Shown: piece after piece, positions 35,643 to 38,276 of the stretch
Numbering within the stretch: position 1 is the stretch's first letter
Layout: every line of letters begins with the position of its first letter
Assembly (NCBI GenBank): GCA_964589935.1
Contig: CAZPVD010000009.1
Span: 88,969 to 152,968 of the forward strand
DNA from: an uncultured Verrucomicrobiota bacterium
GTDB taxonomy: Bacteria > Verrucomicrobiota > Verrucomicrobiia > Limisphaerales > VHCN01
Direction of reading: 5' to 3'
DNA length: 64,000 bases
The notes under the pieces: model-generated
What the model was told of the DNA's origin: nothing
Seen by the model: the letters and a program-made list of their open reading frames with translations, nothing else
Database searches by the model: none
Translations under genes and position numbers: made by a program

Positions 35643-38276
35643 TTACAGGAACAAATCCATCTGCGGCGGCGGCGCGAGCCGCTTCAGCTTGTCGCGGTCC
35701 TGCTGGCGGCGCGGTTGGCGGACATTGCCTTCCGGCGTCAGCTCGGATTCTTCAAGGTTGCCAAGGATTTGTTTGGCGCGTTCCAGCACTTCTTTCGGCA
35801 CGCCAGCCAACCGGGCGACCTGGATGCCGTAGCTCTTGTCCGTGCCGCCCTCAACGATCTTGCGCAGGAACACAATCTGGTCGTGCCACTCGCGCACGGC
35901 GACGTTGAAGTTTTTCAAGCGTGCCAGCCGCGCCGAAAGTTCCGTCAACTCGTGATAATGCGTGGCGAACAAGGTTTTCGCGCCGACCGCGTTGTGCAGA
36001 TGCTCGACGATGCTCCACGCGAGCGAAAGCCCGTCAAACGTGCTCGTGCCGCGCCCGATCTCGTCGAGGATGATGAGGCTGCGCGGCGTGGCGTTGTTCA
36101 GGATGTTCGCCGTCTCGCTCATCTCGACCATGAACGTGCTCTGCCCGCGTGCGAGGTCGTCGCTCGCGCCGATGCGCGTGAAAATGCGATCCACCAGATC
36201 AATTCGCGCCGACGCCGCGGGAATGAAACTCCCCGTGTGCGCGAGCAGCGTGAGCAGCGCGACCTGCCGGATGTAAGTGGACTTGCCCGCCATGTTCGGC
36301 CCGGTGATGAGCGCGATTTGTGGAGAGTCTTGGGTCTTGGGTCTTGGGTCCAAAGTCGCGTCGCTCGGCGACTCAAGACCCAAGACTTTGGACTCAAGAC
36401 TCGTATCATTCGGCACGAAGCGTTCCTCCACCAGTGCCTGATCGAGCACCGGATGCCGCCCGTCGGTGATGCGCAGCACGCCTGCGTCGCCGATTTCGGG
36501 CCGGCAATACGTGTAGAGCCGCGCCGTCTCCGCGAACGACGCGAGCGCGTCGAGTTGCGCCAGCGCGGACGCGGTCTGCTGGATCGCCTGCAAGCTTGCG
36601 ATGACTTCCTCGCGCACTTTGAGAAAGAGTTCGTATTCCAGCTTCACGCTGCGTTCCTCCGCGCCGAGGATTTTGCCTTCCATTTCCTTCAGCTCCGGCG
36701 TGATGAAGCGCTCGCCGTTGGCGATGGTCTGCTTGCGGTGGTAATGCGGCGGCACCTTGTCGAGGTTCGCGCGCGTCACTTCGATGTAATAGCCGAACAC
36801 CGAGTTGAACCGCACCTTGAGCGACGCGATGCCCGTGCGCGCGATCTCGTCCTGCTGAAGTTTCGCGATCCAATCCTTGCCGCCGCGCTGCGCCGCGCGC
36901 AACTCATCGAGCGCGGCATCGAAGCCGTCGCGAATCAAACCGCCCTCTTTCAACGCCAGCGGTGCTTCGTCCACGATGGCGCGTGCAATCAACTCGACGA
37001 GCGCGGGTGATTCGGTGATCTGGGCAGTAAGATTTTCCAACAACGAGCCACCCCTCATTCCGTCCCTCTCCCCATCCGATGGGGAGAGGGTGGCGAAGCC
37101 GGGTGAGGGGCCGGCTGACTGTGCAAGCGTTTGAAGATTTTGTTTGAGGACGGGCACCTGCTCCAGCGCGAGCCGCAGCGCGACGAGGTCGCGCGCGTTG
37201 CCCGTGCCCACGCTCAGGCGGCTCAACGTGCGTTCGAGGTCACGCACTTCCGCGAGCCGCGTGCGGAACTGATCCAGCGCGGTGGAATTTTCCAGCCACG
37301 ATTGCACCGCGTCCTGCCGCGCGCGGATCGGCGCGACGGCGGCGAGCGGTTGCGAAAGCCAGTTGCGCAGCAGCCGCGCGCCCATCGGCGTGACGGTGTG
37401 ATTCAGCGCGCCGTAGAGCGAGGTGTTCTTCGGCGCGTCGCGGTGCAGCGGTTCGAGGATTTCCAGGTTCCGCAGGGTGATGGCGTCGAGCACGAGGTAG
37501 TCGCTGCACTGGTAGAACGACATCCGCGTGAGGTGCCGCACGTCGCGCCGCAAATGCTGGCTCAAGTAGTGCAGCGCCGCGCCTGCCGCGCCGACGGCAG
37601 TGGTGCGGTTCTTCAGGCCGAAGCCGTCGAGCGACGCGACCTTGAAGTGCTCGCGCACGGTGAACACCGCCGTCTCCGGCGCGAACACCCAGTCGTCGTA
37701 GCCGATGAGGATGCGGAACGCGCCTTGCAGCAACTCGCGCAACGATTGTGCCTCGGCGGGATAAATGATTTCCGCCGGCCGAAGTCTTTCAAGCTCGGCG
37801 AGCAGCGCCGCGTCGCCTTCGACTTCCGTCGTTTTGAAATCGCCGGTCGTCAAATCCACCAGCGCGAGGCCGTAAGTTTTTCCCGTTACGCAGAGCGCCG
37901 CGAGGAAGTTGTTCCGCTCCGCCGCGAGCAGGCGTTCGTCGAAGTGCGTGCCGGGCGAGAGGATTTGCGTGACCTCGCGCTTGACGAGCTGGCCGGGCCG
38001 CGCGTCCTCCATCTGGTCGCAGACGGCGACCTTGCGGCCGGCGCGGAGCAGGCGCGCGATGTAGCTGTTGAAGGCGTGGAACGGGATGCCGCACATCGGC
38101 ACGACGCCGCGTTTGGTGAGCGCGACGTTGAGGAGTTGCGCGCCGGTGACGGCGTCCTCGAAAAACATCTCGTAGAAATCGCCGAGGCGGAAGAGCAGCA
38201 GCGCGTCCTTAGGCAGCTCGCCCTTGATGCGGCGATACTGCGCCATCATCGGGGTGAGTTGCGCTTCGGCGGACAT
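35643..38276 (-). CDS. mutS: DNA mismatch repair protein MutS (with a 26-aa in-frame insertion upstream of Walker A)
   Basis: MMAQYRRIK...DFYEMFFEDA N-terminus. Walker A ITGPNMAGKST. TFMVEMSETANIL. Full length about 877 aa. Confidence 0.95.
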   Translation of the reverse strand: MSAEAQLTPMMAQYRRIKGELPKDALLLFRLGDFYEMFFEDAVTGAQLLNVALTKRGVVPMCGIPFHAFNSYIARLLRAGRKVAVCDQMEDARPGQLVKREVTQILSPGTHFDERLLAAERNNFLAALCVTGKTYGLALVDLTTGDFKTTEVEGDAALLAELERLRPAEIIYPAEAQSLRELLQGAFRILIGYDDWVFAPETAVFTVREHFKVASLDGFGLKNRTTAVGAAGAALHYLSQHLRRDVRHLTRMSFYQCSDYLVLDAITLRNLEILEPLHRDAPKNTSLYGALNHTVTPMGARLLRNWLSQPLAAVAPIRARQDAVQSWLENSTALDQFRTRLAEVRDLERTLSRLSVGTGNARDLVALRLALEQVPVLKQNLQTLAQSAGPSPGFATLSPSDGERDGMRGGSLLENLTAQITESPALVELIARAIVDEAPLALKEGGLIRDGFDAALDELRAAQRGGKDWIAKLQQDEIARTGIASLKVRFNSVFGYYIEVTRANLDKVPPHYHRKQTIANGERFITPELKEMEGKILGAEERSVKLEYELFLKVREEVIASLQAIQQTASALAQLDALASFAETARLYTYCRPEIGDAGVLRITDGRHPVLDQALVEERFVPNDTSLESKVLGLESPSDATLDPRPKTQDSPQIALITGPNMAGKSTYIRQVALLTLLAHTGSFIPAASARIDLVDRIFTRIGASDDLARGQSTFMVEMSETANILNNATPRSLIILDEIGRGTSTFDGLSLAWSIVEHLHNAVGAKTLFATHYHELTELSARLARLKNFNVAVREWHDQIVFLRKIVEGGTDKSYGIQVARLAGVPKEVLERAKQILGNLEESELTPEGNVRQPRRQQDRDKLKRLAPPPQMDLFL
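36325..36402. repeat. 78-nt imperfect palindromic element (GAGTCTTGGGTCTTGG modules and their complements) inserted in-frame in mutS
   Basis: Left arm gagtcttgggtcttgggtcttgggtccaaagtc. Right arm gactcaagacccaagactttggactcaagactc. Encodes SLESKVLGLESPSDATLDPRPKTQDS relative to canonical MutS. Confidence 0.6.

Follow-up and report, generated by a model that had tools for sequence, protein, structure and literature searches.

A palindromic heptamer-array insert in mutS of an uncultured Verrucomicrobiota bacterium occupies a slot whose hairpin fillings differ between close relatives

We analyzed a 64,000-nucleotide stretch of DNA from an uncultured Verrucomicrobiota bacterium (contig CAZPVD010000009.1 of assembly GCA_964589935.1; hereafter, the window), in which the mismatch-repair (MMR) gene mutS carries a 78-nucleotide (nt) imperfect palindrome, in frame, shortly before the codons for its Walker A motif (P-loop). 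The equivalent position in related MutS proteins, which we call slot 2, is almost always filled, but mostly with unrelated palindromes. We put the probability at roughly 60% that the element is nonessential hairpin repeat DNA, selfish or nearly neutral, that sits in a permissive loop of MutS and turns over rapidly; its neutrality, the exposure of the loop, and the way the filling is exchanged are what we infer from the comparisons below. The features on which the argument turns, in window coordinates, are as follows.

35643..38276, minus strand: mutS coding sequence, 877 amino acids (aa) plus stop codon, five MutS Pfam domains.
36325..36402, minus strand: hairpin insert (slot 2, family a), a 78-nt imperfect palindrome, in frame in mutS.
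36368..36402, minus strand: arm nearer the 5′ end of the mRNA; heptamers GAGTCTT/GAGTCCA/AAGTCTT/GGGTCTT/GAGTCGC in the minus-strand reading.
36360..36367, no strand assigned: 8-nt spacer separating the arms.
36325..36359, minus strand: arm nearer the 3′ end of the mRNA; CCAAGAC-type heptamers, read on the plus strand as 3.4 copies of GTCTTGG at 36327-36350.
36302-36276, minus strand: Walker A/P-loop codons (GPNMAGKST), 7 codons downstream of the slot-2 insert.
37049..37105, minus strand: second in-frame palindromic insert (slot 1), in mutS domain III, with a CCCTCTCCCCATC-G-GATGGGGAGAGGG core.

An earlier note, made from the letters of the window alone, described an imperfect hairpin of GTCTTGG-type modules at 36325-36402, and this description holds. 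The two arms are 35 nt each and 77% complementary, with inner sub-arms of 17 to 18 nt that are 94% complementary, and each consists of 3 to 5 imperfect units; Tandem Repeats Finder scored the GTCTTGG array at 100% matches and the other arm as 4.7 copies of a GACTCAA-like unit (36370-36402). Folded as single-stranded DNA, the element reaches −26.1 kcal/mol (z = −6.3), compared to −11.05 ± 2.38 kcal/mol for 200 dinucleotide shuffles, none of which folded as well, and it is the longest stem-loop palindrome in the window. It encodes 26 residues, SLESKVLGLESPSDATLDPRPKTQDS, from codons 36401-36324, such that the palindrome is shifted by one base relative to the codon boundaries; the reading frame is kept because the insert is 78 nt long. 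Folding as RNA showed no strand bias (−48.1 for sense versus −54.2 for antisense), so we rejected a strand-specific RNA structure. We likewise rejected an intrinsic terminator or a known RNA family as the identity of the element, because neither a terminator nor an Rfam match was found there.

The gene that carries the insert appears to encode a normal MutS. A database protein (P0001) is 100% identical to its product (ORF [open reading frame] 38276 to 35643), in which all five Pfam MutS domains are recognized and the FYE mismatch-binding motif, Walker A, Walker B, and the C-terminal QMDLF are retained. Between the window and the related locus L081, the mutS core is 82% identical in amino acids and 61% identical at third codon positions, which argues that the core is under purifying selection. 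Since mutS is intact, its motifs are present, and its core is constrained, the element does not appear to inactivate MutS. Alignment to Escherichia coli MutS places slot 2 at a short linker preceding the P-loop strand: E. coli has SPQRR (5 residues) where the window protein has the 26-residue insert plus P. More distant relatives (L001 to L003; 63 to 74% identity) have 7 residues there, versus 29 in the window, and their empty slot is unfolded (z = +0.5 to +1.3); L001 to L004, which served as distant relatives, were the only useful ones among the matches listed in a contig scan with MutS. These comparisons bear out the claim that 26 residues were added in frame just ahead of Walker A.

We compared the 120 closest MutS proteins, which are 76 to 84% identical and come from verrucomicrobial metagenome-assembled genomes (MAGs), some of them labeled Limisphaerales or Verrucomicrobiia; the clade probably belongs to the Limisphaerales of the Verrucomicrobiota. 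All 120 are full-length, with no frameshifted allele among them. Slot 2 is filled in 116, by 17 to 51 aa between ...ERFVPNDTxL and PQIALITGPNMAGKS, and the inserts fall into at least 11 unrelated peptide families, in most of which the two halves of the peptide resemble reverse-complement readings of one another. Family (a), SKVL[SG]LES...[RP]KTQD, comprises the window protein and nine others (P0012, P0016, P0019, P0023, P0029, P0057, P0058, P0068, and P0070); it is 26 aa long in all 10 carriers, despite core divergence of up to 18%. In family (b), the insert measures either 20 or 27 aa, and the difference of 7 aa corresponds to three heptamers, in either arm. Arrays of heptamers or octamers make up about 40 of the 120 slot-2 inserts; the other two thirds or so are not built of repeated units.

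The idea of a recent, strain-specific insertion, as raised in the earlier note, thus fails: the slot is filled nearly throughout, and the same 26-residue family recurs in nine other MutS proteins. The distant relatives and one clade member (L090, the same as P0017), in which mutS is otherwise normal, do have an empty slot. According to the note, a 26-residue segment present in all relatives would mark a lineage-specific loop rather than an inserted element. Half of that applies here, in that an insert is near universal, but most inserts are unrelated palindromes and not a conserved loop.

To the window we added the DNA of 11 clade loci, fetched by exact protein look-up, for a total of 12 clade sequences. 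Slot 2 is filled in 11 of these, and every filling is a hairpin, with RNA-fold z scores of −3.8 to −8.2 (five shuffled); the exception is L090. The fillings are as follows.

Window and L081: GTCTTGR heptamers.
L082: GTTTCAA heptamers.
L083: GATTGCC heptamers.
L212: AATTGCC heptamers.
L088: octamer array.
L084, L086, L087, L089, and L211: GC-rich palindromes of the repetitive extragenic palindromic (REP) type.

An assembly artifact was rejected as an explanation, because the slots are filled in frame in independent JGI, ENA, and NCBI assemblies.

mutS contains a second such site. The slot-1 core, CCCTCTCCCCATC-G-GATGGGGAGAGGG, is bordered by CCCCTCA and TGAGGGG, and the element encodes ...SPGFATLSPSDGERDGMRGG...; SPSDGER can be read from both strands. 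Slot 1 holds 19 to 49 variable residues in all 120 homologs, belonging to several families and formed by various palindromes, and about 24 residues are missing at this position in E. coli MutS. In an AlphaFold2 model of the window protein, which is poor overall (built on 37 close homologs; mean predicted local distance difference test [pLDDT] score of 55, with domain V below 50), slot 1 is modeled, at low confidence, as a loop joining two helices. Slot-like inserts also occur at a third site, in domain II, in 3 of the 120 proteins.

Fillings differ even between closely related genes. With core divergence measured on 779 conserved MutS columns, only 41 of 120 proteins match their nearest neighbor in slot-2 class; among 852 pairs with less than 6% core divergence, slot 2 differs in 677 and slot 1 in 615. 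P0016 and P0037, whose cores differ by 2.3%, have different fillings in both slots. The window protein shares family (a) with proteins 15 to 18% away, while its closest relatives (11 to 15% away) have other families. Insert type thus does not follow the MutS tree, and the fillings turn over much faster than the gene. At the DNA level, mutS of L081 and L211 is 85 to 98% identical, falling to 26 to 45% exactly between GATAC and CCTCAGATT (slot 2) and dropping likewise at slot 1; the abruptness of the drop argues that the exchanged unit is sharply bounded.

Over 87 nt, the window and L081 inserts share 79% identity and show one compensatory change in the stem (G:C to A:T); third codon positions of the core are only 61% identical, so the insert has diverged less than would be expected had it co-diverged neutrally with the gene. 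Identity is not locally raised in the flanks of the insert, and a recent transfer between the window lineage and that of L081 by a long recombination tract was rejected because third-position identity was not raised in the 40- or 80-codon flanks. In L212, the arms have drifted apart (−26 kcal/mol versus −55 kcal/mol in L083), and this decay speaks against strong selection for pairing. Between L083 and L212, a G-to-A change affected all four units of one arm at once, which points to homogenization of a tandem array rather than maintenance of the stem.

Several fillings belong to dispersed repeat families. GTAGCAGCSGACGTGAGTCSGC fills slot 1 of L081 and, inverted, slot 2 of L084, and it also lies between genes at L084 5750; GGTGGGGCGAGCG / GGTGGGGCGAGCGTCC occurs in slot 1 of L089 and outside genes in L089, L084, and the more distant L003; and GGAGCGCGGACGGCTCG occurs in slot 1 of L086 and outside genes at L086 3727. 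A GATTGCC-like heptamer hairpin is found both in L083 mutS and in an L088 spacer. GTAG is the tag of RAYT-associated REPs, and GTAG-tagged fillings occupy slot 2 of L084 and L089 and slot 1 of L081, L083, L087, and L088; some start with GTAG and are arranged as inverted doublets, like REPINs. The label "REP/MITE-like" that was given to the window element (MITE, miniature inverted-repeat transposable element) is borne out on the REP side by its slot mates, which are REP-type, partly GTAG-tagged, and have extragenic copies; the element itself has no tag, no terminal inverted repeats distinct from its body, and no target duplication.

Nearly every heptamer hairpin has a unit of its own (GTCTTGR, GTTTCAA, GATTGCC, ATTTACG, GAATGAA, GTTGAAG, AGTCAGC, and others). 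The earlier note proposed looking for further genomic copies of the window element; the pattern GTCTTGGGTCTTGG, with up to two mismatches, matched only inside the element itself in the 64-kb window (chance expectation, 0.39). For the insert peptide in other proteins, a phmmer search of 1.84 billion cluster representatives with a 33-aa query returned only one 928-aa protein, at the low power expected for queries of 26 to 33 aa, and a word-index search with a 52-aa concatenation of two natural variants, also of low power at such lengths, returned no candidates. Scanning public metagenomes for three GTCTTGR units gave at least 120 contigs (L091 to L210) with G+C contents from 0.33 to 0.74. Among the matches listed, arrays have 3 to 15 units and mostly run in one direction, a few are hairpins (L091, L109, L112, L129, and L130), and none lies in mutS. 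By eye, from flanking translations, some of these arrays look like 21-nt (7-aa) in-frame inserts in ordinary genes: a Glu-tRNA-synthetase-like ORF (L127), a histidine kinase (L129), a NifS-like ORF (L153), and a glycosyltransferase (L151).

The same behavior is seen at other loci. In three genomes, a DinG-like helicase gene near mutS carries a hairpin insert at the same site (MTSATLA...GLNYF); the three inserts are all different, two of them are heptamer arrays, and L090 and L087 have none there. In the spacer that separates ppx from an epimerase gene, each genome has a hairpin of heptamer arrays, and the unit varies (ATTTACG, GATTGGC, or GAATGAA); between L086 and L087, its arms are conserved and its loop is replaced. 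These inserts are located as follows.

DinG-like helicase inserts: L086 16076-16148; L088, in the gene at 20182-22266; L089 15663-15738.
ppx/epimerase spacer hairpins: L086 5426-5505; L087 8964-9042; L088 7166-7254; L089 7147-7241.

In L087, the DinG-like helicase (13572-15652) was called as two overlapping ORFs, 13572-14252 and 14246-15652, and is probably frameshifted in the MAG, away from the insert site. Across the clade loci, our own palindrome scanner (ungapped, score of ≥14, with no hits in shuffles) found 10 hairpins in ∼26.5 kb of mutS and 19 in ∼241 kb of flanks, a ∼5-fold figure that is only descriptive because the loci were chosen through mutS. Sliding-window folding energy was discarded as a way of finding such elements: it mainly tracked G+C content and failed to pick them out.

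We propose that the hairpin of mirrored heptamer arrays occupies a permissive surface loop before the β-strand leading into the P-loop and that, in this verrucomicrobial clade, the loop forms a standing slot, almost always filled by a palindrome, whose filling is quickly exchanged. Exchange might be driven by addition of palindromes, by deletion of hairpins, and by unit slippage together with homogenization within arms; short-tract recombination between alleles may add to it. Selection would act only as a filter, passing inserts that leave the frame open, are a multiple of three in length, and encode a hydrophilic peptide suited to a loop, and the element would therefore not switch MutS off.

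Several observations weigh against regarding the element as nearly neutral repeat DNA. Occupancy, ∼97% for slot 2 and 100% for slot 1, is above what simple neutral gain and loss would lead one to expect, and two of the three strongest stem-loops of the window (slot 1, slot 2, and a hairpin at 27792-27871) sit in one 2.6-kb gene, mutS. The conservation of the insert between the window and L081 implies, as far as this pair of sequences goes, some constraint or a more recent common origin. Hairpins of the heptamer type show neither a tag nor a target duplication, and no transposase was identified, the window genes not having been screened for Y1 enzymes. Neither the window nor ∼240 kb of the relatives' flanks contains a second copy of family (a), which makes it at most a putative dispersed or mobile element. 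Finally, the AlphaFold model gives no support for exposure of slot 2, since pLDDT is below 50 at residues 605 to 827.

Alternatively, the hairpin may be home-grown, having arisen in place by slippage of a heptamer (e.g., AGTCTTG, from the Ser-Leu codons) plus fold-back template switching and having spread by short-tract recombination via the conserved flanks. Such an origin fits the first array unit, which overlaps the conserved T-x-L codons (ACG AGT CTT G...), the outermost stem pairs of L083, which use the ancestral GAATTG, and the private unit of almost every heptamer hairpin. It also fits the homogenization of units within arms, the gradient of unit variants in L091 that is mirrored in both arms, the lack of another family (a) copy in the 64-kb window, and the near invariance, in DNA, of the flanks in the Walker A region. 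We nonetheless think it unlikely, given that the GC-rich palindromes in these slots clearly belong to dispersed families, found in several genomes and in either orientation, that no recombination tract surrounds the insert in the window-L081 comparison, and that the occurrence of GTCTTGR arrays in at least 120 unrelated metagenome contigs argues that the unit is not peculiar to mutS. A selected function is highly improbable, whether the hairpin would act on mutS expression (translational pausing, mRNA stability, or polymerase pausing) or its peptide would serve as a disordered loop that tunes ATPase activity or partner binding. Slot occupancy near 100%, an insert more conserved than synonymous sites, the compensatory stem change, and the concentration of strong hairpins in mutS would all be expected of such a function; yet sequence, peptide, and length (17 to 51 aa) vary freely between close relatives, hairpins decay (L212), the empty allele of L090 lies in an otherwise normal gene, and the element neither favors a strand in folding nor coincides with a terminator or a known RNA family.

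The earlier note also suggested that the repeat marks a slippage-prone contingency locus and could produce a mutator state. For mutS to be a reversible mutator switch, slips of the 7-nt unit would frameshift the gene before the P-loop, a reverse slip or recombination between alleles would restore it, and successive rounds of knockout and rescue would have left the turnover of inserts as their trace. The arrays do lie within the ORF, with a unit not divisible by three, and about a third of the slot-2 inserts (∼40 of 120) are heptamer or octamer arrays. Insertion-deletion loops longer than about 4 nt are poorly recognized by bacterial MutS, which would let 7-nt loops go unrepaired; in E. coli, mutS alleles are known to be mosaic. 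Family (b), at 20 versus 27 aa, shows that slippage occurs, with frame-preserving outcomes the only ones seen; given slips that keep the frame, one- and two-unit slips that break it should also arise. The joint G to A change of four units in one arm (L083 versus L212) is further consistent with slippage, and the mutator idea itself was raised by Di Nocera et al. (2013; PMC3733652) for repair genes carrying REPs. Against a switch, family (a) is constant at 26 aa in all 10 carriers, whose cores diverge by up to 18%. Moreover, arms of only 3 to 5 units offer little scope for rapid slippage, every one of the 120 homologs is full-length, some two thirds of the fillings do not consist of repeated units, and similar turnover occurs in an intergenic spacer and in a helicase gene, to which mutator logic does not apply. 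We thus consider a mutator switch driven by heptamer slippage decidedly improbable; if it were real, it would bear on the evolution of mutation rates in soil and freshwater bacteria. A still bolder variant, in which mutS and at least one DinG-like helicase gene have dedicated hairpin slots, rewritten by a DNA transaction specific to hairpins (for example, transposition of single strands or replacement directed at hairpins already in place) and possibly doubling as reversible frameshift switches of repair, seems to us very improbable; if true, it would constitute an evolved, heritable way of toggling mutation rate.

Parts of this system resemble known ones. In Rickettsia, palindromic elements (RPEs), reportedly described by Ogata et al. 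in 2000 and 2002, lie in frame in genes that still function and are thought to be tolerated in surface loops; they are said to be 100 to 150 nt long and to form few conserved families with many copies per genome, at insertion sites stable across species. The window element is similar in being in frame, without a stop codon, and in leaving MutS domains and motifs intact; it differs in being a heptamer-array hairpin and in that the slot-2 filling changes between close relatives. A REPIN, a type of element reportedly described by Bertels and Rainey in 2011, consists of two inverted REPs that form one long hairpin. Like REPs and REPINs, the window element is an imperfect palindrome able to form a stem-loop (35-nt arms, z = −6.3), and several fillings in relatives are GTAG-tagged with extragenic copies; unlike them, it consists of tandem heptamers, ends in GAGTC...GACTC without a GTAG/CTAC or CGTC tag, and occurs only once in the 64-kb window. 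In contrast to MITEs, it is wholly palindrome, with no distinct terminal inverted repeats, and there is no direct repeat at its junctions (ACG|AGTC ... GACTC|TCC).

Heptanucleotide tandem repeats include the short tandemly repeated repetitive (STRR) sequences of cyanobacteria. Others are the TAACTGA repeats of Beggiatoaceae (PMC4679880), and an excess of heptameric repeats in bacteria has been reported (PMC4692102). The window element has the same unit length as these arrays, which are widespread, mostly intergenic, and few to some fifteen units long; known arrays are direct, with suggested roles at the RNA level, whereas the window element consists of two opposed, translated arrays that form one hairpin. 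Simple-sequence contingency loci are a further parallel, and 6-bp repeats in Salmonella mutL act as MMR switches. The window has a tandem repeat of a 7-nt unit within an ORF, like a contingency locus, but its tract (3 to 5 imperfect units per arm) is too short for high slippage. A mobile element has also been found in mutS of Vibrio splendidus (PMC5296598). In such cases, as here, repeat or mobile DNA lies within an MMR gene and could change the mutation rate; however, variation and a mutator phenotype were demonstrated there, while here the gene is intact in every sequence and the length of family (a) is constant.

The closest precedent is that of Di Nocera et al. (PMC3733652), who described GTAG- and CGTC-tagged REPs inside genes, many of them dimers that encode 20 to 30 aa, sometimes two per gene. 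These are over-represented in replication and repair genes (uvrABCD, recBCD, polA, dnaE2, and ligase) and are most numerous in the verrucomicrobium Opitutus terrae, and the authors speculated on mutators; mutS is not mentioned in the main text. In-frame palindromic repeats in DNA-repair genes, including those of a verrucomicrobium, and in genes of Rickettsia are thus already known. What seems new is the location in mutS beside the P-loop, the construction of the hairpin from heptamer arrays, and above all the swapping of fillings in orthologous slots among near-identical genes; an orthologous slot with many alternative fillings was not met in our literature search or in what we consulted of that paper.

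In-frame palindromes in repair genes have been noted earlier as static curiosities, whereas here a single codon position of mutS, a gene with an essential function, holds at least 11 unrelated hairpins in proteins 2 to 18% apart. If the slots are filled by nearly neutral repeat DNA, as we favor, they offer a natural system in which to study how fast selfish hairpins turn over, whether hairpins attract hairpins, and how much foreign sequence is tolerated beside a P-loop ATPase active site. They also call for caution among annotators and phylogeneticists, since length variation in MutS of this clade reflects repeat DNA and not protein evolution. We value the window element chiefly as an entry to the turnover of hairpin slots in this clade and do not take it as evidence for a mutator state.

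Other repeats and small ORFs in the window deserve brief mention. The third of its strongest stem-loops, at 27792-27871, is an 80-nt, REP-like hairpin with 26-nt arms that are 88% complementary; it fills the gap between the convergent ORFs 26357-27787 (plus strand) and 27877-30939 (minus strand) and could be a bidirectional terminator or mRNA stabilizer. ORF 55952-57481 runs, at its stop codon, into four tandem copies of ATTTACG (57481-57508), the unit that also makes up the ppx/epimerase spacer hairpins of L086 and L087. In the divergent region upstream of mutS, a 23-codon lysine-rich ORF at 38448-38519 (MAAKKKSAPKKVAAKKSGAKKKK) accounts for a 15-nt tandem repeat at 38474-38509. Downstream of the neighboring exonuclease-like gene, at 39333-40113, lie two short ORFs whose translations, by eye, have the look of a nucleotidyltransferase/HEPN-type toxin-antitoxin pair.

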